DNA from: Lachnospiraceae bacterium | Lineage (GTDB): Bacteria > Bacillota > Clostridia > Lachnospirales > Lachnospiraceae | Direction of reading: 5' to 3' | DNA: 64,000 nucleotides | Assembly: GCA_022800815.1 (NCBI GenBank) | Contig: JAAWRC010000011.1 | Span: 13,587-77,586, forward strand | Shown here: one piece after another, positions 1-12,149 of the stretch | Layout: each line of letters opens with the position of its first letter | Position numbering within the stretch: position 1 is the stretch's first letter | Position numbers and translations under genes: made by a program | The notes under the pieces: generated by a model | The model's database searches: none | The model's input: only the letters and a program-made list of their open reading frames with translations | Told to the model about the DNA's origin: nothing

Positions 1-728
1 TCTGCAACATCGACTCTTTCATATCTATATAAAAGATCCTCATAATCTACAAAGCCAATTTTATCAGCCTCCAGCCAATAGTCACCTCCACTTTGTACCC
101 ATTCACCACGCACAGTAACAGTAGTACCACGTTCAGGAATCTTTTCCAATGCCCTCCCATCCACAATCACCCAGTCAGAATCGTGGGATGGCGTGTCGTA
201 AACCAAGAAAAACCCATCCTCTTTTGATCTCACCACCCATCCCTCAACATAAATTTCATCTCCCACATAAGCCCCAGAAAAATTGACCAAATTTCCGATA
301 ATCGCCTCTTGATATCTGTTTTTTAGATATCCATATACCACAATACAAACTATTGACAAAACCAACAGTGAACTTACCACCACAGCCTGTTTATCTTCCG
401 ACCATTTCCTCTTCCAGAAGTCTTTGAATCTGCTCTGCCATGCAGCAACAGACGTGTTCTGAACAGGTGTTTGCTCGACTGTTTTTGAAGGAATTGCCCG
501 CTCTGCACTACCGCAATAAGGGCAAAAGGCACTATTCTCCCCTATCGCTTTTCCACAATTAGGACAAAACTTAAATACTTTGGAGCCATTCTTCTTTACA
601 GAAACAGAGGTATCTTGAACTGGCGTTTGCTTGACTGTCTCTGAAGGAATTGCCCTCTTTACAACACCGCAATAAGGACAAAAGTTACTGTTATCCCTGA
701 TTTCTTTTCCGCAATTAGAACAAAACAT
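1..728 (-). CDS. Double zinc-ribbon membrane protein, partial (runs off the window start)
   Basis: Not in the ORF track; translated by hand from ATG at 728: MFCSNCGKEIRDNSNFCPYCG...FCPNCGKAIGENSAFCPYCG, then a hydrophobic helix (VVVSSLLVLSIVCIVVYGY). Frame stays open to base 1. Confidence 0.85.
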   Translation of the reverse strand, partial: MFCSNCGKEIRDNSNFCPYCGVVKRAIPSETVKQTPVQDTSVSVKKNGSKVFKFCPNCGKAIGENSAFCPYCGSAERAIPSKTVEQTPVQNTSVAAWQSRFKDFWKRKWSEDKQAVVVSSLLVLSIVCIVVYGYLKNRYQEAIIGNLVNFSGAYVGDEIYVEGWVVRSKEDGFFLVYDTPSHDSDWVIVDGRALEKIPERGTTVTVRGEWVQSGGDYWLEADKIGFVDYEDLLYRYERVDVA

Positions 729-805
729 AAATGTTATCCCCCTTGTATCTCCCTCATTGTATTCAGGCCAGACATGATACTGGCATTCTCTCTTCCCCTG
801 CCGTT

Positions 806-1831
806 TCACCATCCAAGAGCATTTTCAAGCTCATTATAATCCAGCTTTTTCAAATCCTCCTCTGTGAGGTCCATATTATCCAATTCCTTCCAAAAGCTGC
901 GCATTTGTGCCCTTACGACTTCCATTAAGCCATAATCCTGCATATACCCCACAAATTCATCTGACGGTTCATAATACTGCCCATCTACCAACAGATAAAA
1001 TTCTCCCTGATCCATGCTATAAACAACTGCATTCAGTTCCCCTTCCGGAAGCCGGACGTCATAAAATCCGAAGACAATGGTTTCTTCGTTCGGGTTATAG
1101 CTAAAGGAATCCGCATTTCCCTCATTCCCGCCGAGAATCTGGTCAAAACAGTCCTTGATGTTATCATCCGACGGGAAGTTCACAGACAACTGCCCTTCTC
1201 TAATCAGAATCCACCAATAACCACTGTCAAATACATAAGCTTCCTTCTTATGATCTCTGGAAGTCCCGCTCGACAGTTTCTCAGTAATTTCCCCTAATTC
1301 TATAAACGGCAGGAGACGGATCATCCCGTCTTCCCCGACGATAAGACCTTCTGCACAAACGGATCCGTCATACGGGTAACCGTTTTCAAGGCAAACATAC
1401 TCAGAATACTCGTCCAGCGCATTACCATTCCGGTCTACAACCATTGCGTCACGCACAAAAAGCTGTTGATTTTTTACATCCTCATAGATATCGCCTGTAA
1501 TCACAATGTCTTCCGTCGTCTCTTCAGGCTCCGGCATGAACCCCGCCTCTTTTTCCGCTTCCGATATCGAAGCCATTTTATCTTCTGAAGCGGCCTTTTC
1601 GGCTTCGATTTCTGTCTGTGTATTTTCTTTTGCTGTTTCCGCCGCAGGAGCCCTTTCCGTTTCCGCTGCAGAATCCCTTTGCTGGGACATGTATAACTCC
1701 CGGATTGATTCTATGTCACTGTCATCTACTGCTTCTTTTCTCCCCGAAGCGGAATCCGACCCGCAGGAAGTGACCGACATTGCCATGAGGACAAAAATTG
1801 TCACAATCATTATTTTTTTCATTCTCTGCAT
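806..1831 (-). CDS. Uncharacterised lipoprotein with acidic low-complexity linker
   Basis: Signal peptide with lipobox VTSC. AGGAGG RBS favours the start at 1831 (MQRMKKIM) over the track start at 1918. Confidence 0.75.
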   Translation of the reverse strand: MQRMKKIMIVTIFVLMAMSVTSCGSDSASGRKEAVDDSDIESIRELYMSQQRDSAAETERAPAAETAKENTQTEIEAEKAASEDKMASISEAEKEAGFMPEPEETTEDIVITGDIYEDVKNQQLFVRDAMVVDRNGNALDEYSEYVCLENGYPYDGSVCAEGLIVGEDGMIRLLPFIELGEITEKLSSGTSRDHKKEAYVFDSGYWWILIREGQLSVNFPSDDNIKDCFDQILGGNEGNADSFSYNPNEETIVFGFYDVRLPEGELNAVVYSMDQGEFYLLVDGQYYEPSDEFVGYMQDYGLMEVVRAQMRSFWKELDNMDLTEEDLKKLDYNELENALGW

Positions 1832-1859
1832 ATTCATCCTCCTATTGATCCCCACCCGA

Positions 1860-2861
1860 TCAAAATTGACTCTCCGTAAAATAAACTCTCTCCTGATAAG
1901 TATTATCCTGATAATCATCCGATACGATCAGCGTGATCTTCTCCGTGTGATTTTCGAGAACCTGTGGAATCTCCCCGCTCCCCTTCTTTTTCAGATGATA
2001 ATACCCGGCGATCCCCCTGGCATCCGCCTGAGCCAGTCGGTCAATTTTATCAGAATCCGCAAAAAACGCCTGGTAATCTGCTTCATTGTCAAGAAATGCA
2101 TGCTCCACGATAATCCCCGGAATCCCGGCCTTCACCGAATTCCGGACAATGCTGTAATAGTCGCAGAGGGAACCGTCGTCATAATACAGTTCGTCCTGGG
2201 TCACCCGGAACATCAGTCCCTGATTTTCGCTCCCCGCCTTTTCCAGCTCTTTCAGAATATAACAGCCGAGCTCCTGGGTAATCTCTGCAAGCTCCGGGTT
2301 CCCGGCGCCCCTGGCTGCTAAGACCGTACAGCCATTGTAGTAATCGCAGATACTTCCGGCCGCATTGTTATGAAGGCTGATCAAAACATCCGCCCCATCG
2401 TCCACGGCTTTTTTGACCCGGTCCGTAAGCTCCACGTCAAGGGCTCCATCCCTTGTCAGATACACCGTGACATTCTCATAGGCTTCCAGCTCTTCTTTCA
2501 GTTTCAATGCGATCTGCAGATTCACATCCCGCTCCAGGACTCCGTGCTTCTCATTTTCCGCCCCACCTGTTTTCCCGTGCCCGGCATCCAGCTCAATAAC
2601 AAGCGGCTCTTCCCGGAACACATAGTCGGAAGCTGTCTCCCCATCCTCCTCCGTGGTCGGTGTCAGGGGCTCCTTCGCAGTGGCTGGTTCCAGGGCTCCT
2701 TTTGCCTCTGCCTTTTCTGTCTCCGTCTTTTCTGCCGTTGTCTCTGTAACTGCCCTGTCCGCTTCCGTGGCTCCTGCAACCTCCGTTTTCTCACTGCATC
2801 CGGCAACCAGACAGAGAGCCGCCAACATGCCCGCAGCCACCTGATATGCCCGCTTCTTCAT
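1860..2861 (-). CDS. N-acetylmuramoyl-L-alanine amidase (Amidase_3), lipoprotein
   Basis: Lipobox VAGC. Amidase_3 motifs LDAGHG, E(R)DVNL, ISLHNNA, IIVEHAF. Confidence 0.9.
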   Translation of the reverse strand: MKKRAYQVAAGMLAALCLVAGCSEKTEVAGATEADRAVTETTAEKTETEKAEAKGALEPATAKEPLTPTTEEDGETASDYVFREEPLVIELDAGHGKTGGAENEKHGVLERDVNLQIALKLKEELEAYENVTVYLTRDGALDVELTDRVKKAVDDGADVLISLHNNAAGSICDYYNGCTVLAARGAGNPELAEITQELGCYILKELEKAGSENQGLMFRVTQDELYYDDGSLCDYYSIVRNSVKAGIPGIIVEHAFLDNEADYQAFFADSDKIDRLAQADARGIAGYYHLKKKGSGEIPQVLENHTEKITLIVSDDYQDNTYQERVYFTESQF

Positions 2862-3943
2862 TACGATTCCCCCGGCTTCTTCGAGCCCATGTCGTCCGCC
2901 AGGTATTGGTCATAGGTCCGGATCGCATAGGTCGAGCCGCTGAGGGACCACCCCCGGTACAGGCAGTCCAACAGATATCCGGTCTGCGTGAAGTCCACGC
3001 CGATTCCGATATAGTCTTCCGTCGGATACACCACCTGCATCATATAAGTGGTCGTATCATTGGACACGACGCAGCAGTATTTCGCCTGGGACGGATCACC
3101 GGCCAAAGGGCCTCCGATGATCATCCTGGAATAGCCGTCGTCGGCAACACCTTTGCTTTCATGGACATACGGGCATTTTTCCCCTTCCAGAAAATCCCCT
3201 TTCAGGGCCTCGCATATTTCGTTTGAGCACCTATAGGGATCCCCCTGAACAGGAGAGTCCATTTCAGTAAAGGAAAGGGTAACACTGCCGTCCGATGTCG
3301 CAAGCTCATAACCTTGTCCCTCTTCATCGTAAACAGCTTTATAAAAGTAGTCCTCCGGATACATAAAACTATAGGTACCATCCGGTCTGGCGGCCATAAT
3401 GAAATCATCTTCGGAGTACAGGTCTCTCGGCGATCCGGCCAGGGCGCCCTCCAGCTCCTGCAGTTTTTCCGGTTCCGTTTCCTCTGGTGTGGGCTCTGTT
3501 ACAGGCTCTGTCGTTTTCTCACTTTCTTTGGTCGTTTCTGCAGCCGCAGGGCTGCTCTCCGTCCGGTATTCATTCTTCGTCTCCCCCGGCGCTTCTTCTG
3601 ATGACTCCTGAACTTCCGCCACGACATCCGCAGGCGGGCCTGTTTTCTTCATCCGGGAAGGCTGTTCGGTTTTGTCATTTTCACCCAAAATCCGAAATCC
3701 GAGAACCGCCGCTGTCACTGCCAGCGCAGCAACGAAAAAGATCATGGCAATAACCAGAACATTTGGCTTATTCTTCTTTTCCGGCCTCCCGGCCGTAAAC
3801 GAATGTTCCTCCGGTATCGCCACTTTCACCGGGTCACTCTCATCCTCCGAAAAGGACGACACCTCCGCCCCGCAATATTCACAGAATCTCGTATCATCAT
3901 CTAATCGTTCTCCACAGTTTTCGCAATACATACATACCTCCAC
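2861..3943 (-). CDS. Zinc-ribbon domain membrane protein with extracellular C-terminal domain
   Basis: N-terminal CENCG...CEYCG, one TM helix, E/T/P-rich linker, folded C-terminal domain; GGAGG RBS. Confidence 0.8.
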   Translation of the reverse strand: MEVCMYCENCGERLDDDTRFCEYCGAEVSSFSEDESDPVKVAIPEEHSFTAGRPEKKNKPNVLVIAMIFFVAALAVTAAVLGFRILGENDKTEQPSRMKKTGPPADVVAEVQESSEEAPGETKNEYRTESSPAAAETTKESEKTTEPVTEPTPEETEPEKLQELEGALAGSPRDLYSEDDFIMAARPDGTYSFMYPEDYFYKAVYDEEGQGYELATSDGSVTLSFTEMDSPVQGDPYRCSNEICEALKGDFLEGEKCPYVHESKGVADDGYSRMIIGGPLAGDPSQAKYCCVVSNDTTTYMMQVVYPTEDYIGIGVDFTQTGYLLDCLYRGWSLSGSTYAIRTYDQYLADDMGSKKPGES

Positions 3944-4026
3944 ATTTTAATTATTCAGACACACCTGACCCATAGGACAGAAGCAGGTACTCCTTCGGTT
4001 TCTATACGCATTTATCGAAAAAGTTA

Positions 4027-4779
4027 TTAGCTCCCCCGTCTTTCAAATAGTGCGCCAACATGCTCTTCTCCCAGAAACAGGGTATCACCCCTGCATTCCC
4101 CCATCACATTTCCTTCGACATCCATTAAAATAAGGGCCGTCCCGTCATAGTTCCAACTTCCCTCTGTGCGTTCATTCTCTGCATCTATATAATAAGTCCC
4201 GTCTGCCTCAAGTCTCTAGGTTCCTTCTCCGGCCACTCCCAGAAATGTATCTATAGAAAGAGTTCCATCCGCTTTAAATGTCAGTTCCAATTCGCCGATG
4301 TTCACGCCGTATATGCTCAAATATTCCTCAGTCGGGAAAGAAAGGCCCCCGATCTGGATCTCCGTCAGTTCCCAATGTCCGACCAGGATCCGCTCTGCCT
4401 CCCGCCGCATCTGCAAGATCTGAATCTCTTCCAGGGTCGCCTGCACATAATCATCGTCCCAAAAATCCCCCCTCGCTTTCAGGTTCTTTTCCGCATCCTG
4501 GTATGTCATGGATTCAGCAATGTACGCTTCCCTTAACGTATCTACGGCTTCATACAAAGTTTCATTCGCCCGTTCTTCTCTTTTTTCATTTCCTTTGATT
4601 CGTTTTTCCCACAGTTTCCCTGTAGCTGTCCAGTCTCTTTTCTCGACATATCTCGTAAAATTTTTTTCCCAGTTTAAAATAGACAAAAAAATACATATGG
4701 CCACCATCAACGCTGCAGTTATGCTGCCCAGCACGATAAGCGGTATTTTATCTTCCTTTCGGAATATCCGATCCATCAC
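4027..4779 (-). pseudogene. Membrane-anchored protein with lipocalin-like beta C-terminus, interrupted by an in-frame TAG at 4216-4218
   Basis: Frame continues for 62 sense codons after the TAG (RLEADGTYY...ERRGS) to TAA at 4027-4029. Context GEGT*RL fits a lost Trp codon. Confidence 0.7.
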
Positions 4780-5570
4780 CTAAAATCCCCCCTTATGAAA
4801 CAAACGCCATCTTTCTTGTGTTTTTCACGCACGATCGTGAGCAATCCAATGACAAAGACAACAATACTGATCACCTGCGATGTGGAAAACAGATAGAAAC
4901 TTCCACGCACAGAATCCCCCCGCAAATATTCCAAGAAAAACCTCATGATGGAATATAAAACCATATACATGGCGATTGCAGAGGCTCCGTTTCGCCTTTT
5001 ACAGGAATACAATAAATAAAATCCGATCATAAATTCACCAAATGCTTCCAGTAATTGAACCGGAAATAGCCGAATATCATTTGGAGCGTATAAAGAATTG
5101 GAATAGATCACTGCAAACCTTCCATTATATGGAATCCCATGACAACATCCCACCAAATGGCAGCCGATCCTTCCAAAGCCATGTACGATCGGGATACAGC
5201 CTGTACCATATTGGAGATATTCCGAAACATGAATCTTAAATTTCTTCCGGCAAAAATACAGCGCCGGAAAGATCCCCAGAAAGCCTCCATAGAAGACAAA
5301 GCCTCCGCTCATAAGCATGCCGATGTAAGAAAGATCATTTAACCTGGCAAAGTCAATGGTATGGATGGAAACGAGCAGATAAAGAATTTTGGCTCCTGCC
5401 ATGCCAAATAATCCTGACATTGCGCTGAGGATCACAAAATCGTTCCAGTCCAAATGAAACCGTTTCACCTGGACATATGCGATACCTGCCGCAGCCATGA
5501 TGCCAATGACGATCATGAAACCATAATATGGTACAAAACGAGAAAATAAATGGAATCCCAATGCCCCCAT
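4776..5570 (-). CDS. lgt: Prolipoprotein diacylglyceryl transferase paralogue
   Basis: Multi-TM protein with GGFVFYGG, GRIGC..GCCHG, PVQLLE and RFFLEYLRGD motifs. Confidence 0.88.
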   Translation of the reverse strand: MGALGFHLFSRFVPYYGFMIVIGIMAAAGIAYVQVKRFHLDWNDFVILSAMSGLFGMAGAKILYLLVSIHTIDFARLNDLSYIGMLMSGGFVFYGGFLGIFPALYFCRKKFKIHVSEYLQYGTGCIPIVHGFGRIGCHLVGCCHGIPYNGRFAVIYSNSLYAPNDIRLFPVQLLEAFGEFMIGFYLLYSCKRRNGASAIAMYMVLYSIMRFFLEYLRGDSVRGSFYLFSTSQVISIVVFVIGLLTIVREKHKKDGVCFIRGDFR

Positions 5571-5618
5571 GTAAACTTGACCCTTTTTAAGATGAACAGC
5601 CTCCGTTTTACCGTCCCC

Positions 5619-6587
5619 TTAAACCTGAGAAGCTACCGCACCTGCACATGCGATACACGCAACATAAAACAGGAGATTTAAAGAGGTACCAATAATAGAA
5701 CATATCCAACCGGCCTTTGCAGTCCCGCTTTCTCCTCCCAGTGAATTTTTTCTGTCATTTGCCCCAAGAATAATCCCGATAATCCCAACGATCGCACCGG
5801 CCCATCCCAGTATTGCAGCACTGAAAACGGCAATAACAATAGAGATAATGCCTAATACTAAGGATGCGGTTCCTGTCGGCCCTCCTTTTTCCGGTACTTG
5901 ATTCACTACCGGTGGAATATAATTTTCTGTATTTCTTTTTTGTTCTGGCGCATCTAAATCACACCGCTTCCCACAATATGGACAAAATTCTTCCGTTCCT
6001 TTTAGTTCTTTGCCACATACACGGCAGATCTTTTTTGGGGCATTTTCTTTTGAATCCTTCGTTACGTCTGCTCCGCACCGTGGACAGAATCTCATATTCT
6101 CTTCCATTTCGAAATTGCATTTTATACATTTAACTCTGCCATTTGACGTCACCATGTTTTGGTTAAGATCATCACCGTTATATTCCACTGCATCTTTCTC
6201 CTTTTGATTATTTAAATTCACATGATCCCTTCCTGTGCCATAAAAAATTTTATAGCTATCTTCTTCCTCTGATTGATAATTTTGAGTTGTATACTCCCGC
6301 CCCACGTCCGACACATCGGCAGCTTCCAGACGTCTTTCCTCTTGAACATTGGAATTTACGCAATCTTTCCCTACATCCGGCATATCGGCAGCCGCTACTT
6401 GTTCGGCATCTTGAACGTTGGAATTCATGCGATCCTGGTCTGCATCTGATACCTCAGTATTTGTCACACTTTCCACATTTTGAACACTCCGCTTCACAGG
6501 CACTCCGCATGTAGCACAAAATAAAGCTCCCGAATCCAACGGGCTTCCACAGTACCTGCAAAATTTAGGAATCTTTTTCTCCTCCAT
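5619..6587 (-). CDS. Triple zinc-ribbon protein with DUF4190-like C-terminal membrane domain
   Basis: Three CxxC...CxxC pairs. C-terminus ASLVLGIISI...GIILG...AKAGWICSIIG matches the DUF4190 pattern. Confidence 0.78.
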   Translation of the reverse strand: MEEKKIPKFCRYCGSPLDSGALFCATCGVPVKRSVQNVESVTNTEVSDADQDRMNSNVQDAEQVAAADMPDVGKDCVNSNVQEERRLEAADVSDVGREYTTQNYQSEEEDSYKIFYGTGRDHVNLNNQKEKDAVEYNGDDLNQNMVTSNGRVKCIKCNFEMEENMRFCPRCGADVTKDSKENAPKKICRVCGKELKGTEEFCPYCGKRCDLDAPEQKRNTENYIPPVVNQVPEKGGPTGTASLVLGIISIVIAVFSAAILGWAGAIVGIIGIILGANDRKNSLGGESGTAKAGWICSIIGTSLNLLFYVACIACAGAVASQV

Positions 6588-6894
6588 ACTCTTCCCCCAT
6601 ACAATTACCTCCAGATAACATTTCTGAAAGCTTCTAATTTTCTTTTTGCTCTTTTGAAATCCACTACATCACCTTCGAACTACTTTTATAACTAATATTA
6701 TTATATCTATAATAAATATTACCATGGCTATAATTATATTTCAATCAGTAAAGTTTCATTTTTCGACTTTTTCTGGCATAATTATTTTTTTACGTTAAAG
6801 TCTCTATTACTAATAGTTTTATATTGATAGATTATTCCTCTGACGCTATATGAATTTTACAATTAAAGCGATTTTATTAGAAAGGAATCAGTCT

Positions 6895-7215
6895 ATGAAG
6901 AATCTGGATTTTGTGAAGATCGGAAGGAAGTTAAAGGAAATCCGTATTTCCAGAGGCTTAACCCAGGAATATGTCGCCAACATGGCCGATGTAAACACCA
7001 GCCATATCAGCAACATCGAGAACAACCGGGTCAAGATCTCCCTGTCCACGCTGGTGCATGTGTGCAATGCCTTGAGCACCACCGTCGATTACATCCTCGC
7101 CGATGAATATGTCTCCCCTTCCTCCGTTCTGGAGCAGGAGATCCTACATGAACTGAAATCTTGTTCCGACGGGACGAAGGAGCAGATCTTGAAGATTGTC
7201 AAGGCTCTGCAGTGA
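6895..7215 (+). CDS. XRE-family helix-turn-helix transcriptional regulator
   Basis: IGRKLKEIR...GLTQEYVA...SHISNIENN pattern; RBS GAAAGGA before ATG 6895. Confidence 0.9.
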   Translation: MKNLDFVKIGRKLKEIRISRGLTQEYVANMADVNTSHISNIENNRVKISLSTLVHVCNALSTTVDYILADEYVSPSSVLEQEILHELKSCSDGTKEQILKIVKALQ

Positions 7216-7501
7216 ATCCCTGACCGGACAAGGCCATTTCCATGACCAGGATGGCCCCATAGCGGAATCCCTTTACAAAGCCTTCCTCCTCCGCCACGGA
7301 AGCGGCAGAAAAGAGCTTATCCCTGAGGGCCTCATACTTCTTCCTGTCTAAGACGTCCTCTTCTTCTTTTAACAGCTCTCTTGTCTCTTCCTCCACCCTG
7401 CGGTTTGCCTCCTCCATGTATCCGGTCCCCTGGATGATCTCATGATAGATTTCCCTGATCCTCTTATCCATGTCTGTTTTTGGAGCGTCCCCACGCCCCA
7501 T
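7199..7501 (-). CDS. Small acidic hypothetical protein typical of clostridial mobile elements
   Basis: 100-aa ORF ending in E(E)GFxxGFRYG; start codon uncertain. Confidence 0.6.
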   Translation of the reverse strand: MGRGDAPKTDMDKRIREIYHEIIQGTGYMEEANRRVEEETRELLKEEEDVLDRKKYEALRDKLFSAASVAEEEGFVKGFRYGAILVMEMALSGQGFTAEP

Positions 7502-7852
7502 TCCTCCTTTCTTGGTGCTTTCTTTTTTGTGATTCTGCGTTTCGACTGTCTGTACTTCTTCAAAGACCTGCCTGTGTTATGGTTCTCTTCATCTGTCGTC
7601 CATGGAATGTCCTCCTTTCCCGTAAGGGATCCGGTCTAAACGGCCCTTTATAAAACACTGCAGCATACCTTCTGCACAGAGATACATTTTAATGGTTTCT
7701 CCACAAGAAAGAAGACGACAGGTTCTCTTCCCTGTCGCCTTCTTTAATATAATATACAAGTCAAAATGACAATTTTTTCTTTGGGGGAGCTGTTGCAGGC
7801 TCCCCTGTCCGGATCAAAATGTGCCTTGTTTTGTCAACTTTGTTTTCTGTCC

Positions 7853-8191
7853 TCACTCATCCAGAAACTGGAGTAATTCTTCGTTCACTTTTTCCATATG
7901 TGTGAGAAGCTTCGCAACCTCAAGCGGGTTTCCCGATTCTGCGGCGGAGAATGCTCTGAACTCTAAAAGGCTTGTGTAAAGGTCATGGAGACTGTTGAAA
8001 AATTTACTGATGTTCGAGAACAGGTAAACACGGCCTACCTCGCCGTCCGGCAGCTTCATGTAGACATACCCATCCTTCTGTTCCTCTATTTCCTGTTCTG
8101 CCACCCCCTGATTTGTAAAATTTTCTGTTCCCTCATTGGTATCCGCCTTTTTGATTTTGTGCATTACTTTTGCGTTGGTGATTTTGCTCAT
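7853..8191 (-). CDS. Hypothetical protein
   Basis: 112-aa ORF preceded by a GAAGGAGG RBS. Confidence 0.65.
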   Translation of the reverse strand: MSKITNAKVMHKIKKADTNEGTENFTNQGVAEQEIEEQKDGYVYMKLPDGEVGRVYLFSNISKFFNSLHDLYTSLLEFRAFSAAESGNPLEVAKLLTHMEKVNEELLQFLDE

Positions 8192-8542
8192 GCCTGTTCC
8201 TCCTTCAAATTTGGTCTTTCCGCTGTTACTATTCCTTCACGGTTGCCTGCCGCAATCTCTGCGATCAGGAACTGTCCATTTCTTTCATCTCCTGAGCCTC
8301 CCTCCATAAATCGTGCTGCAATCTTTCGATTACTTCTTGGTTGCCTGCCCGGTAATTTTTTATTTTGCCGAGGAAAACTGCACTTCGATAGAATCAGAAA
8401 CCTTGCACGGATACCAGCCGATGGCATGAATCTTCAATCCATAATTTTTACCGTTCTTTATAAAAAGACCTTGAGAAGCACCGAAGTCCGTCCAGCATTA
8501 TTTCCTTTTTTCGGACATTTTGATATGATCTTACAGAAAAAA

Positions 8543-8800
8543 CTATCCATATAAAAAAGAAAAATCAGGAGGGATTTCATCATGACAGAAGAAGTTTACG
8601 AAAGCCTGATAAGCCGTCCAGAACGTTTCTTTAAACTCTATCGTGAAATAAAGTTTGTTTTTTGTCACTTTAAACGTATATGGATTTGCTTTCAGCAGTT
8701 TCATTTCCCTTGCCGTATACTCCTTCATCACATCCTCTCCAATCTGCCATTTATTGTATCAGATGTCCTTTGGCTTGGAATCATCCAAATGTCCACTTTA
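8543..8800 (-). pseudogene. Truncated IS3-like OrfA (HTH) with probable IS left end
   Basis: MKEYTAREMKLLKANPYTFKVTKNKLYFTIEFKETFWTAYQA resembles the N-terminus of clostridial IS3-family OrfA, then breaks off near 8602. TAAAGTGGAC (8800-8791) resembles an IS end. No transposase follows. Confidence 0.55.
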
Positions 8801-9082
8801 CACTTCTTACACCCTTCACTGCTGTCTACTTTCAGGGATTTCATACCTTTTTTGTATGTCTACTTTTCGGGTACTTCCCCTTTCTCTATCTGTCCACAGT
8901 CTGGTAAGCAAGCCATTCTCCTATTTGTCCATTTCTTTGGATTTATCCCTTTTACAAAGTGTCTACGGTCTGGGATTCCTTCTGTTATTTCAGGCCTAGC
9001 ATTCATATAGTATTTCCCCTGGCGGTAACTAACATTTCAGGCAATCCCTTTCTCTTGCCGTGTCCACCTTATAGGGTACATT
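8790..9082. repeat. Degenerate ~34-bp-period array of TGTCYAC-led units
   Basis: Motif starts at 8790, 8823, 8857, 8891, 8926 (TGTCCAT) and 8960, with spacings 33/34/34/35/34. A further copy sits at 9061. Confidence 0.8.
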
Positions 9083-9389
9083 ATATTTGGAGGCGATCCA
9101 GCGGGAGGAGGCGATTCTGTGGGATGAGGCTCATTACTTTATTCCGGAGACTGTGTTGCGTTCAGCGTGTGCGCCCTTGCTGAAAACGGTATCATTTCCG
9201 GCGATCAAGAGGGAACTCCACGAGACAGGGATACTTTCCTGCAACGATGGAAAACGCATGAATTTTACAACGAAAAAGTTATTGACGGATGTGTACGGCC
9301 AAAGCTTTCGGGCGAGATTTTTAAAAATCAAAAGGGAATTTTTCCAGACGGAGGTTTCGTTTGGATTAGAAGAAAGGAGAGGATTGTGA
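9075..9389 (+). pseudogene. C-terminal remnant of a larger element protein (possibly primase/replication-associated)
   Basis: Protein-like ~100-aa frame with no RBS, closed upstream by TAG at 9072. Its stop overlaps the ATPase start (TGATG), showing it was a translated gene. Confidence 0.45.
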
Positions 9390-10420
9390 TGTATGTAGGA
9401 CGATTCATTGGAAACTGGTGTTATACGGCCGAAAAATCCCCTAATAGCTCCGTATGTATCACCGGATTATCCGGGAGCGGAAAAACGTGCCGGCTGAACC
9501 AGATCGAGCTGGAGGAAGTGAGACTGGGGGCTACGGTTCTGGTCTTTGACCTTCACAGAAGCCATGCGGAAGATCAGGTTTTTGGCGAAATACGAGAGCG
9601 ATATTTGCCGTATGTAAATCGGATTTCAGTCCTCCGGGACGGACTGGCGCTGCCTTTGTTTACGCCGCTCCGTGATGCTTATGGGCGGGAGGAACCCTAT
9701 GTTCACCTGGTAAATTCGGCGGTCCAGGCGCTGGGCGGTACGTTCCGGTCAGCGTCACGTCAGATCGGTGCATTGCGGTCAGCGGTTGAACAGGTGGTGA
9801 AATCGCCTGACGGACGGTATAACCCGGCGGAGGCTTTGTCCTTCTTTCTGGCTGCGCAGGAGACTCAGGCTGCGGATGCCGTCTATGAGAAGTTGTGGAC
9901 GGTGCTCAACTGTAATGCACTGCGTCCGGGTACAAAAAAGATAGAAAACGGAAAGATTAATATCCTGGATTTTTCGGAGGGGGATATGCTCACGCAGAGT
10001 GTCCTCGCAAAATTGACGCTGGCCTGTATCTGGAGGTATGCGCTGTACTCGAGGACCATGGAGGAAAAGCCGAATATTGTTTTGGCACTGGATGAGTTTC
10101 AGCACCTGTCCTTAAAGCCGGATTCCACCCTTTGCCATCTGCTCAGGGAGGGACGGAAGTTCGGGATCAGCTTGTTGCTGGCGACTCAGACGCTGGAGGC
10201 ATTTTCTAAGGAGGCGAAGACCCTGTTAAATCAGACCGCCACAAGGCTGTATTTCCGGCCGACACTTGAAGAAATCCGGAAAATAGCGAAGGGGATCGAC
10301 CAGGAGAAGGTGACGGAATGGGTGAAGATTTTGCAGAGGCTCCAGGTCGGAGAATCACTGGCGGTTGGCAATTTATGTATTGGCGGACGGGATGTCATTC
10401 GCCCGGTCGTGTTGAAATGA
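9389..10420 (+). CDS. HerA/VirB4/TraG-like P-loop ATPase
   Basis: Walker A GLSGSGKT, Walker B LALDEFQ, REGRKFG..LLLATQ motif; RBS AAAGGAG. Confidence 0.85.
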   Translation: MYVGRFIGNWCYTAEKSPNSSVCITGLSGSGKTCRLNQIELEEVRLGATVLVFDLHRSHAEDQVFGEIRERYLPYVNRISVLRDGLALPLFTPLRDAYGREEPYVHLVNSAVQALGGTFRSASRQIGALRSAVEQVVKSPDGRYNPAEALSFFLAAQETQAADAVYEKLWTVLNCNALRPGTKKIENGKINILDFSEGDMLTQSVLAKLTLACIWRYALYSRTMEEKPNIVLALDEFQHLSLKPDSTLCHLLREGRKFGISLLLATQTLEAFSKEAKTLLNQTATRLYFRPTLEEIRKIAKGIDQEKVTEWVKILQRLQVGESLAVGNLCIGGRDVIRPVVLK

Positions 10421-10653: not shown

Positions 10654-10760
10654 GTGAAAAATGAATAGCATAAGAAAATCTGCATGACACAGAGGCCCCG
10701 ATATGGTACACTGGAAGAGTCATGTCGGGGCCTTTCCAAAATGGAAAGGAGTTCGATATT

Positions 10761-11957
10761 TTGTCTGGAAAGAGAAAGGATAAGAGAGGACGAGTTTTAC
10801 GCAATGGGGAAATCCAGAAGTCCGATGGCCGATACCGTTATAAGTATACGGACGCTTTTGGTGAGGTACGGTATGTTTACTCCTGGAGATTGGATAAAAA
10901 TGACCGTATCCCGGTAGGGAAAAAGTGGGAGCCCTCTTTGCGGGAAAAGGAGAAGCAGATCACGGCGGACATGTTTGACCGAATCGTGCCGGAGGGCGGG
11001 GGACTGACCGTCATAGAGCTGGTAAAGAAGTATGTGTCTTTGAAAACCGGAGTGCGTCCCACGACAGAAATGGGATATCAGACTGTCATCAATCTGTTGG
11101 AGCGGGAACGCTTTGGGTGCCAGCGGATTGACAAGGTGAAGCTTTCGGATGCCAAGGCATGGCTGATACAGCTCCAAAAGGATGGGAGAGGATTCAGCTC
11201 GATCCGTACCATCCGGGGCGTACTGCGGCCGGCCTTCCAGATGGCGGTGGATGACGACCTGATCCGCAAGAATCCATTTGGCTTTGAGCTGGCCTCGGTG
11301 ATCTATAACGACAGCGTCACGAGGGAGGCGCTTACCAGAGATCAGGAGCGGAGATTTTTAAAGTTTGTAAAAGAGGATCCACATTTTAAGCGGTATTATG
11401 ACGGGATTTACATTCTTTTTCATACGGGGCTTCGGATTTCTGAATTCGTGGGGCTGACAAAGGCGGATATTGACTTTAAGAACAGAAAGATCCATGTGGA
11501 ACGTCAGTTACAGCGGTATGTAAGGATTGGGTACTGTGTGATTGGGCCGAAGACAGAAAGCGGAGTGCGGCAGGTTCCCATGACCGAAGAGGTGGCAGAA
11601 TGTTTCCGCCGGATCCTGAAAGAGCGGAAGGATCCGAAGGTGGAGCCGATGATTGACGGCCACACAGGATTTTTGTATCTGGATAAAAACGGAATGCCCA
11701 TGGTGGCCTTGCACTGGGAAAAGTATTTTCAGCACATCTGCCAGAAATACAACAGCATTTATAAGCTGCAGATGCCAAGGGTCACTCCCCATGTATGCCG
11801 CCATACCTTCTGCAGCAGGATGGCAGCGGCCAGGATGAATCCCAAGACGCTGCAGTACATCATGGGACATGCGGATATCGGTGTCACGCTGAACACCTAT
11901 ACACATTTTGAATTTGAGGAAATCAGTGAAGAGATGTACAGGGTGTCGGGCGAGTAG
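10761..11957 (+). CDS. int: Tn916-family tyrosine integrase
   Basis: TTG start after GAAAGGAG. N-terminal arm-binding domain KRKDKRGRVLRNGE; catalytic TGLRISE, PKT, HVCRH, GH, TYTH all intact. Confidence 0.95.
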   Translation: MSGKRKDKRGRVLRNGEIQKSDGRYRYKYTDAFGEVRYVYSWRLDKNDRIPVGKKWEPSLREKEKQITADMFDRIVPEGGGLTVIELVKKYVSLKTGVRPTTEMGYQTVINLLERERFGCQRIDKVKLSDAKAWLIQLQKDGRGFSSIRTIRGVLRPAFQMAVDDDLIRKNPFGFELASVIYNDSVTREALTRDQERRFLKFVKEDPHFKRYYDGIYILFHTGLRISEFVGLTKADIDFKNRKIHVERQLQRYVRIGYCVIGPKTESGVRQVPMTEEVAECFRRILKERKDPKVEPMIDGHTGFLYLDKNGMPMVALHWEKYFQHICQKYNSIYKLQMPRVTPHVCRHTFCSRMAAARMNPKTLQYIMGHADIGVTLNTYTHFEFEEISEEMYRVSGE

Positions 11958-12149
11958 CCGAAGAGAAGGGGTGGAAATTCCGGGTGCACGGCCGGGGTGC
12001 ATGCACCTGGATTTACACCTTTCCGGGAATGGGATATGCCGCAGGCTGCCGCTTTATACCAGAAATAGAAAAAGCGATAGCTTCTGCCAAAAGCCAGAGA
12101 GAACAGGCTTTGCAGGGCCATGAGAAAGAATGAAAGGATAGGAAAAAGG

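Follow-up and report, generated by a model that had tools for sequence, protein, structure and literature searches.

An accessory Lgt and its cysteine-tailed neighbor as a candidate lipidation pair in the mosaic cargo of a Lachnospiraceae mobile element

Lgt is the first, committed enzyme of bacterial lipoprotein synthesis, and to our knowledge no accessory protein or dedicated substrate of this enzyme is known. Here we describe an lgt homologue, lgt2, carried at the start of a 64,000-nt stretch of a Lachnospiraceae genome (the window; positions 13587-77586 of contig C55 in the 3.4-Mb, 75-contig assembly G000), directly after a gene for a membrane protein with a cysteine-containing C-terminal tail (the partner). 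The two genes recur side by side across the Clostridia, and we propose, with a probability of roughly 0.55, that their products form a two-component lipidation unit in which the partner serves Lgt2 either as substrate or as subunit. The pair would be the core of a mosaic cargo on an integrated mobile element, and the cell-wall amidase trio that accompanies it there would not be tied to it.

A second lgt and its cysteine-tailed neighbor

Genome G000 contains two lgt homologues whose products are 32% identical, a housekeeping copy on contig C37 (203 bits) and the window copy (4776-5570, minus strand; 124 bits), together with a single copy of LspA. The C37 enzyme is sister in the tree to the sole Lgt of G129, a genome of the same genus that has one lgt and no partner gene. 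The window lgt is an accessory second copy, not the core gene, and the original prediction that it is a paralogue rather than the genome's only or core lgt holds.

Lgt2 scores 124.1 bits against PF01790 (gathering cut-off 24.9), in a match that spans model positions 9-239 of 240. The NCBIfam equivalog cut-offs are not reached, with 80.4 against TIGR00544 (cut-off 118.9) and 181.2 against NF000778 (cut-off 334), and the same holds for its relatives P0010 and P0018; the housekeeping copy passes TIGR00544 with 140.7 and reaches 321 against NF000778. Aligned with the E. coli enzyme (5AZB), Lgt2 retains the equivalents of Y26, R143, G154, Y235, R239, E243 and R246, and these essential residues are invariant or nearly so across 143 sequences of the Lgt2 clade. 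At the signature positions H103, N146 and E151, Lgt2 has Y, C and C instead. Because the G000 housekeeping copy carries identical replacements, which are conserved in a clade that includes the sole Lgt of G129, they are no mark of a dead enzyme, and Lgt variants with such replacements are on record in an Lgt survey (PMC13251419). Other residues are conserved specifically in the Lgt2 clade (H130, which is Q in housekeeping Lgts, and P127, F93, V171, E175 and A176, over the same 143 sequences), a pattern that points to a maintained but shifted function.

A maximum-likelihood tree of Lgts places 24 partner-linked enzymes on one side of a branch with 97% support in the Shimodaira-Hasegawa-like approximate likelihood ratio test (SH-aLRT) and 31 Lgts on the other side. 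All 24 partner-linked Lgts lie on the Lgt2 side and all 31 Lgts across the branch lack a partner, so that the partner label changes 3 times on the tree, against 19 changes expected by shuffling. Judged from this tree, Lgt2 belongs to a separate clade, apart from the housekeeping Lgts.

The association between this clade and the partner was recovered from either direction. Six Lgt2 relatives, at 70, 67, 53, 52, 49 and 45% identity, are each preceded by a gene for 81-87 amino acids (aa) on the same strand, 60-110 nt upstream. The three small products that were translated show homology to the 322-aa window partner over its C-terminal 85 residues, and the other upstream open reading frames (ORFs) match the partner profile. 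Two look-ups that started from partner proteins returned the same pairing with Lgt (2/2). Across 300 Lachnospiraceae genera, each represented by one genome, an Lgt match adjoined 16 of the 20 best-scoring partner matches. A profile built from 16 diverse partners was then compared with 401 Clostridia genomes, and among the best 29 non-self matches 26 lie directly upstream of an Lgt gene; the other three comprise one directly downstream (in Monoglobus), one 0.9 kb away and one with no Lgt beside it. All told, the pair was found in at least 16 families of Clostridia. Most pair-bearing genomes tested (25 of 27) encode a further, higher-scoring Lgt, including all seven from Lachnospiraceae and 18 of the 20 others, which have two or more.

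The genes around the pair differ from locus to locus, and include a PadR regulator with an ABC transporter, an arabinofuranosidase, an integrase, FeoAB, a transglutaminase, a hemerythrin with ribosomal genes, purH and glutamate synthase. On one metagenome contig (L049, 2858-8224) the pair closes an apparent operon for an HMA protein, a P-type ATPase, an ArsR-type regulator and a Cu/Zn superoxide dismutase (SOD), and is followed by two further DUF4190 proteins, both without a Cys tail. This contig represents the commonest relative, which is very common in the gut, and its small protein is indexed in 1723 blocks of the collection. Lgt2-like genes are rare in plasmid and phage collections, where the pair was seen on a Monoglobus megaplasmid and on a putative 66-kb faecal "phage" contig. 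A plasmid search with Lgt2 (E <= 1e-10) returned only records from Monoglobus, Lachnospira/Eubacterium eligens and Acinetobacter, with none from Listeria, Enterococcus or Bacillus, and the small partner protein had no match in the plasmid collection. The pair is more often chromosomal than mobile. No fusion of Lgt and partner was found among the long open frames inspected.

The window partner (5619-6587, minus strand; 322 aa) consists of three N-terminal zinc ribbons (Pfam Zn_Ribbon_1 three times, and DZR), probably cytoplasmic, fused to a DUF4190-type domain with three transmembrane (TM) segments (residues ~238-322, nt 5619-5876), and it ends in YVACIACAGAVASQV. Its C-terminal 85 aa are 61-63% identical to the free-standing 85-aa proteins encoded upstream of Lgt2 relatives. 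The match of this domain to DUF4190 (PF13828) is weak, at 14 bits (E 0.043) against a gathering cut-off of 35 bits; its relatives score 23.5-37.5 bits, and many carry a precomputed DUF4190 tag. The three helices are Gly-rich and hydrophobic, and the loop that joins helices 2 and 3 is rich in R and K. Zinc ribbons precede them in 7 of 43 partners, the window protein included.

The tail of the partner has the consensus Y-[IV]-A-C-x-A-C-[VI]-G-G, which in the window protein reads Y-V-A-C311-I-A-C314 (nt 5646-5660). Both cysteines (C74 and C77 in an alignment of diverse partners) are invariant in a set 35-80% identical. A Cys occurs within the last 30 residues of all 48 unique Lgt-adjacent partners, and 43 of them show C-x-x-C. 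Of these 43, 36 place A or S immediately ahead of the first Cys, and the distance from the last K or R to that Cys is 20-34 residues, roughly the length of a membrane span. DUF4190 paralogues encoded near, though not directly before, lgt have no Cys motif. Since the zinc ribbons come without a signal peptide, the N-terminus of the partner should be cytoplasmic; given three spans and a basic loop inside, the Cys tail would then emerge at the outer-leaflet face, where Lgt acts. The suggestion that the Cys-tailed, DUF4190-like protein is a partner or substrate of Lgt had been one guess among several in the original prediction, and with the pair conserved across Clostridia it is the best supported of them.

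A mosaic cargo on a Tn916-type element

Seven co-directional ORFs occupy window positions 1-6587 on the minus strand, as originally predicted, and both their tight spacing and the AT-rich character of the stretch were borne out by ORF positions and low GC content (0.37-0.56 over 1-9000 and below 0.46 in six of nine 1-kb bins; ~0.50-0.63 in the host part). Domain and motif scans likewise recovered the three zinc-ribbon membrane proteins, the two lipoproteins, one of them an amidase, and the Lgt homologue. The gene after lgt2 encodes TM187, a 187-aa single-pass membrane protein (4216-4779); its start overlaps the lgt2 stop by 4 nt, which suggests translational coupling. The next gene (2861-3943) encodes a zinc ribbon (Pfam Zn_Ribbon_1), a TM segment, a disordered linker and an extracellular domain, and the protein has 14 relatives among 5.8 billion proteins. 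An AF2 model of the outer domain (pLDDT ~90 over residues 160-350) gave PsbP as its top Foldseek matches (probability 1.0, TMt up to 0.63), and the domain is predicted to fold like PsbP/Mog1. The gene is followed by one for an Amidase_3 lipoprotein, a putative N-acetylmuramoyl-L-alanine amidase (1860-2861; PF01520, 90 bits; lipobox VAGC at residues 19-22), and by one for a second lipoprotein (806-1837, in an ORF open to 1918), whose lipobox VTSC lies at 49-52 of the long ORF, or residues 22-25 counted from the likely start MNMQRMKK near 1837. Both are recognized as lipoprotein precursors by an N-terminal signal peptide that ends in the pattern [LVI][ASTVI][GAS]C, and the second has no match in Pfam, PHROG or PADLOC. 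The last gene (3-812) is clipped at the window start. Its product has two Pfam zinc ribbons, a single TM segment and a beta-rich, repeated outer domain, and is 360 aa long when complete (C55/L003 13316-14398). The gene set continues to the left of the window with a 296-aa zinc-ribbon paralogue (L003 12410-13300) and a 247-aa TM protein, TM247, which shares a domain with the second lipoprotein.

The original prediction took the seven genes for one co-occurring envelope system. This idea did not survive a tblastn comparison of each module protein with all related loci, and a single co-inherited seven-gene system was rejected. Co-occurrence is limited to one element family (the window, L005 and L081), outside which the zinc-ribbon, lipoprotein and amidase genes were never found with Lgt2 among the related loci. 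From its distribution, the apparent module is best described as a mosaic of independently inherited units, namely the Lgt2 pair, a captured amidase trio and a set of variable surface proteins.

The history of the amidase trio can be read from loci that carry it elsewhere. In L081, L082 and L083 the PsbP-like gene is always followed by an overlapping gene for an Amidase_3 lipoprotein, 68-85% identical to the window amidase. In L083 this gene pair sits on the chromosome between rsmA and trkA, without Lgt2 and with a zinc-ribbon protein, ZnR311, as third member. TM187, which is 80% identical to its L081 copy, is 40% identical to the C-terminal part (outer domain) of ZnR311, and is thus homologous to the third gene of the chromosomal trio; the AF2 model of TM187 (pLDDT 75) combines an outer domain of helices with a small beta region, with no significant fold match in the Protein Data Bank (PDB). 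G000 itself has a chromosomal paralogue locus (C45:67900-69200; L116 7902-9172) with TatD, RsmA, the PsbP-like partner gene of the amidase, and the amidase. The amidase there is intact and 70% identical to the window protein. Of the PsbP-like gene only a decayed C-terminal remnant is left, which has lost an internal segment and contains an in-frame TGA; its intact version is on the mobile element. Taken together, the trio of TM187, PsbP-like protein and amidase looks like a captured chromosomal cell-wall module that is probably not functionally tied to Lgt2. The L082 copy of the PsbP-like/amidase gene pair (L082 1-11102), 46-69% identical, closes a cluster that also encodes an AAA ATPase, a DUF87 (HerA/VirB4-like) ATPase and a double-zinc-ribbon protein; the cluster may be a secretion or conjugation apparatus.

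The remaining cargo genes, which encode the tandem zinc-ribbon proteins and the second lipoprotein, differ from one copy of the element to another. The second lipoprotein matches TM247-like genes in L005 (44%) and L081 (36%), and the lipoprotein gene itself is missing from L081. The tandem paralogues (L003 12410-14398) correspond to one gene in the otherwise 99% identical element of L005 (7556-8640; 62-72% identical), which suggests recent duplication or recombination of a surface protein.

The proposal that these genes lie inside a mobile element is confirmed: an integrase of Tn916 type and an FtsK/TraG-like ATPase are encoded nearby, and other assemblies contain almost identical copies, so that the stretch is identified as variable cargo of an integrated element of the Tn916-integrase type. 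The ATPase gene (9167-10420, plus strand) matches TrwB_AAD_bind. The tyrosine integrase (10722-11957, plus strand) has the N-terminal DNA-binding domain of the Tn916 family (Integrase_DNA, PF02920, 103 bits) and a tyrosine recombinase domain (Phage_integrase, PF00589, 107 bits), and it marks the element edge, with host genes beginning past it at 12120. A DUF6809 protein shares this right-hand neighborhood with the ATPase, the integrase and an XRE-family regulator. In another metagenome-assembled genome (MAG), L005 includes an 8-kb stretch that is 99.3% identical, with adjoining parts at 86-91%, and L081 is a variant element on the same backbone, with 63-85% identity in the proteins it shares. 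In G129, which has neither Lgt2 nor the partner gene, a related integrase occupies the same host site. No direct repeat of at least 12 nt was found to join the integrase end to the 22 kb on its left, and the left end of the element may lie off the contig.

Beyond the window on the left are an AAA-ATPase/PD-(D/E)XK gene, RadC, DUF932, YqaJ and DUF5688 genes, a partial integrase and Septu PtuA/PtuB. The Septu-type pair, at the contig's far left (G000:C55:765-2911), is complete (PtuA 458 bits, PtuB 209 bits). The AAA-ATPase_like/PDDEXK_9 gene (L003 9744-11477) adjoins the module, and another such gene (L044 7027-8709) adjoins an XRE/partner/Lgt2 cassette in an unrelated Lachnospiraceae genus. Within L003 8352-9631, RadC is flanked by a 75-aa ORF of YgiT/MqsA zinc-finger type, which the domain scan covered, and by an 83-aa HTH-like ORF; the two may be a toxin-antitoxin remnant. 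A role of the seven genes in exclusion or defence, also raised by the original prediction, found no backing: a PADLOC scan of the module proteins gave two chance-level matches (E ~1e-4), the PtuA/PtuB pair being separate, and no module protein matched a defence family. A defence or phage function was set aside; in PHROGs, matches were confined to the zinc ribbons and to the amidase, the latter as endolysin.

A possible lipidation pair and its alternatives

The conserved core of the cargo would be a two-gene cassette under a divergent XRE regulator, with the DUF4190-type three-helix protein first and Lgt2 second. In the window the regulator gene (6850-7215, plus strand; HTH_3, 47 bits) is separated from the partner gene by a control region (6588-7215 with the XRE gene included) that has back-to-back promoter-like sites at 6744-6716 (minus) and 6685-6713 (plus), and a divergent XRE gene also stands beside the pair in L043, L044 and L081. 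With the N-terminus of the partner inside, its Cys tail would lie at the outer-leaflet face, the site at which Lgt transfers diacylglycerol from phosphatidylglycerol to a thiol. The tail may enter the Lgt2 active site as a dedicated substrate and become S-diacylglycerylated near the C-terminus, or it may act as a subunit that sets the activity or specificity of Lgt2. The substrate version is favored by the conserved small residue before the Cys and by the one-span geometry. Its most specific form, in which Lgt2 S-diacylglycerylates the first Cys of the A-C-x-A-C tail and the two proteins are a dedicated enzyme-substrate pair, with a polytopic protein lipidated near its C-terminus, is a tentative proposal that we rate as rather doubtful.

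Several observations weigh against the two-component unit or narrow what it could be. Adjacency is linkage, and does not give the direction of an interaction. The strict Gram-positive lipobox pattern (G+LPP type) fits only 5 of 48 tails and a relaxed pattern 25 of 48, and the window tail fails the strict pattern, with Y at -3; the tail as a canonical lipobox was rejected by this test, and is better termed lipobox-like only. Helices 1 and 2 of the partner are conserved as strongly as the tail, which fits a subunit better than a mere substrate. In two small genomes, G600 and G679 (loci L100 and L108; 1.1 and 1.7 Mb), the partner-linked Lgt is the only Lgt homologue and apparently serves as sole Lgt. 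Because these genomes have no other Lgt, an enzyme of the Lgt2 type is not confined to one private substrate and should still be able to lipidate ordinary lipoproteins; together with the equal conservation of helices 1 and 2, they favor the subunit version. Finally, the Lgt2 side of the tree includes four Lgts from Lachnospiraceae that have no partner. A fifth partner-less row on that side, from a Bacillales MAG (L006, 9343-10480), has upstream a 146-aa zinc-ribbon multi-TM protein that ends in WCYVTCSNMDTSGCS, with C-x-x-x-C at its end, and its gene overlaps the start of the divergent Lgt-like gene. The two may form a counterpart of the pair beyond Clostridia.

The preference for a two-component unit has to be set against other accounts of Lgt2. 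It might be an inducible back-up Lgt for envelope, metal or redox stress, with a CxxC partner that guards or reduces lipobox thiols or binds metal and is itself not lipidated. CxxC is a classic metal and redox motif, and a regulator often adjoins the pair, of XRE type in the window, L043, L044 and L081, PadR in L007, ArsR type in L049 and MerR near L052. The pair of L049 closes the metal operon described above, a P-type ATPase lies upstream in Monoglobus, and L052, L055 and L057 hint at a metal link. There is also a precedent on mobile elements of Listeria and Enterococcus, where a copper-induced lgt2 is transcribed together with lit2 (PMC8275575). That said, most contexts of the pair are free of metal genes (ribosomal operons, purH, glutamate synthase and transglutaminase; also FeoAB), domain scans found no copper, lit or redox genes in the window, and the conserved small residue before the first Cys is a lipobox-type feature for which a metal site has no need. 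A general link to metal or copper, being absent from most pair contexts, was dropped as an explanation of the pair and is kept only within this rival, which we hold to be unlikely.

The original prediction saw in Lgt2 a private enzyme for the element's lipoproteins, the amidase and the 370-aa lipoprotein, with the whole set as one trans-envelope, exclusion or defence system. Two genuine lipobox proteins are indeed encoded within 3 kb downstream of lgt2 on the same strand, the order of zinc-ribbon DUF4190 protein, Lgt2, TM protein, zinc-ribbon protein and amidase is kept in the diverged (75-85%) L081 variant, and second lgt genes alongside conjugation lipoproteins on plasmids are reported in PMC13251419. 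However, more than 40 other loci have the Lgt2 pair amid unrelated genes and without these proteins, and PADLOC matched no protein of the module. Moreover, the amidase trio occurs without Lgt2 beside rsmA on the chromosomes of L083 and G000 (C45), where the housekeeping Lgt would have to serve it. The data therefore do not call for a private Lgt for the cargo, a model that we consider quite improbable. As for a redundant, decaying lgt duplicate that hitch-hikes on the element beside a small ORF by chance, its case would be that Lgt2 is under the equivalog cut-offs and has N146 and E151 replaced, an N146C second copy in M. smegmatis being presumed weakly active (PMC13251419). Yet the same substitutions are found in the housekeeping copy, whose clade supplies G129's only Lgt, the other essential residues and the clade-specific ones are conserved over 143 sequences, adjacency is kept in at least 16 families and the frames are intact, so that decay is strongly disfavored and very hard to credit.

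Known systems and significance

Extra lgt copies are common, with about 1,300 of some 13,000 genomes having them according to PMC13251419, which also describes a second lgt on plasmids of the B. cereus group beside conjugation lipoproteins. Like these and the lgt2-lit2 operons, the window has a second lgt on mobile DNA, near lipoprotein genes and with a local regulator. It differs from the Listeria and Enterococcus lgt2-lit2 operons in that no Lit or copper gene is present among the window and upstream ORFs, and it does not belong to a copper operon; the sole likeness to metal operons of that kind is the L049 relative, with its HMA, P-type ATPase and Sod_Cu genes. Compared with housekeeping Lgt (E. 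coli, PDB 5AZB/5AZC; PF01790), Lgt2 has the same family, length class and seven essential residues, but stands in a separate clade, below the equivalog cut-offs and with its own H130, P127 and E175. N146C, E151C and H103Y are common to Lgt2 and clostridial housekeeping Lgts and set both apart from E. coli Lgt. The small Cys-tailed neighbor is nearly always present at Lgt2 and was present at no sampled housekeeping Lgt.

No mention of a DUF4190 partner was found in the accessible parts of PMC13251419 and PMC8275575, nor does the former, as a survey of Lgt, mention any lgt neighbor or partner in its accessible text. The Lgt-DUF4190 pairing was not found in the literature searched, where DUF4190 came up only in an unrelated context. 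A mobile accessory lgt is thus already known, and it is the near-obligate partner that appears to be new. There is a conceptual precedent for lipoprotein modification that needs two membrane proteins in LnsA/LnsB, the two-component lipoprotein N-acyl transferase of S. aureus (PMC7387801); the likeness ends there, since those proteins are unrelated, their chemistry is N-acylation and their genes are non-contiguous. DcrB, an E. coli lipoprotein of the PsbP/Mog1/DcrB fold that promotes Lpp maturation (PMC13712963), resembles the 2861-3943 domain in fold class, but it ranked only 20th in Foldseek (TM 0.42), and the element protein differs from it in its TM-helix anchor, its cytoplasmic zinc ribbon and its genetic tie to an amidase rather than to Lgt.

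The locus can now be described more accurately, what looked like a single envelope system being a mosaic that includes a captured amidase module. Beyond this locus, the roles of the extra lgt copies found in about a tenth of genomes are mostly unexplained (PMC13251419), and here, in many gut Clostridia families, a sharply defined Lgt clade that travels on mobile elements is tied to a small membrane protein with a Cys tail. The pair could point to a previously unseen way of lipidating proteins, or to a protein that regulates lipoprotein maturation. If the tail is indeed lipidated, the site near the C-terminus would contrast with the usual cleaved N-terminus, and if signal peptidase II also cuts before the modified Cys, a diacyl lipopeptide of ~9-26 residues (mostly 11-16) would be released on purpose. 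Such a lipopeptide, made by gut Clostridia, would be a candidate for recognition by the lipopeptide receptors of host innate immunity.

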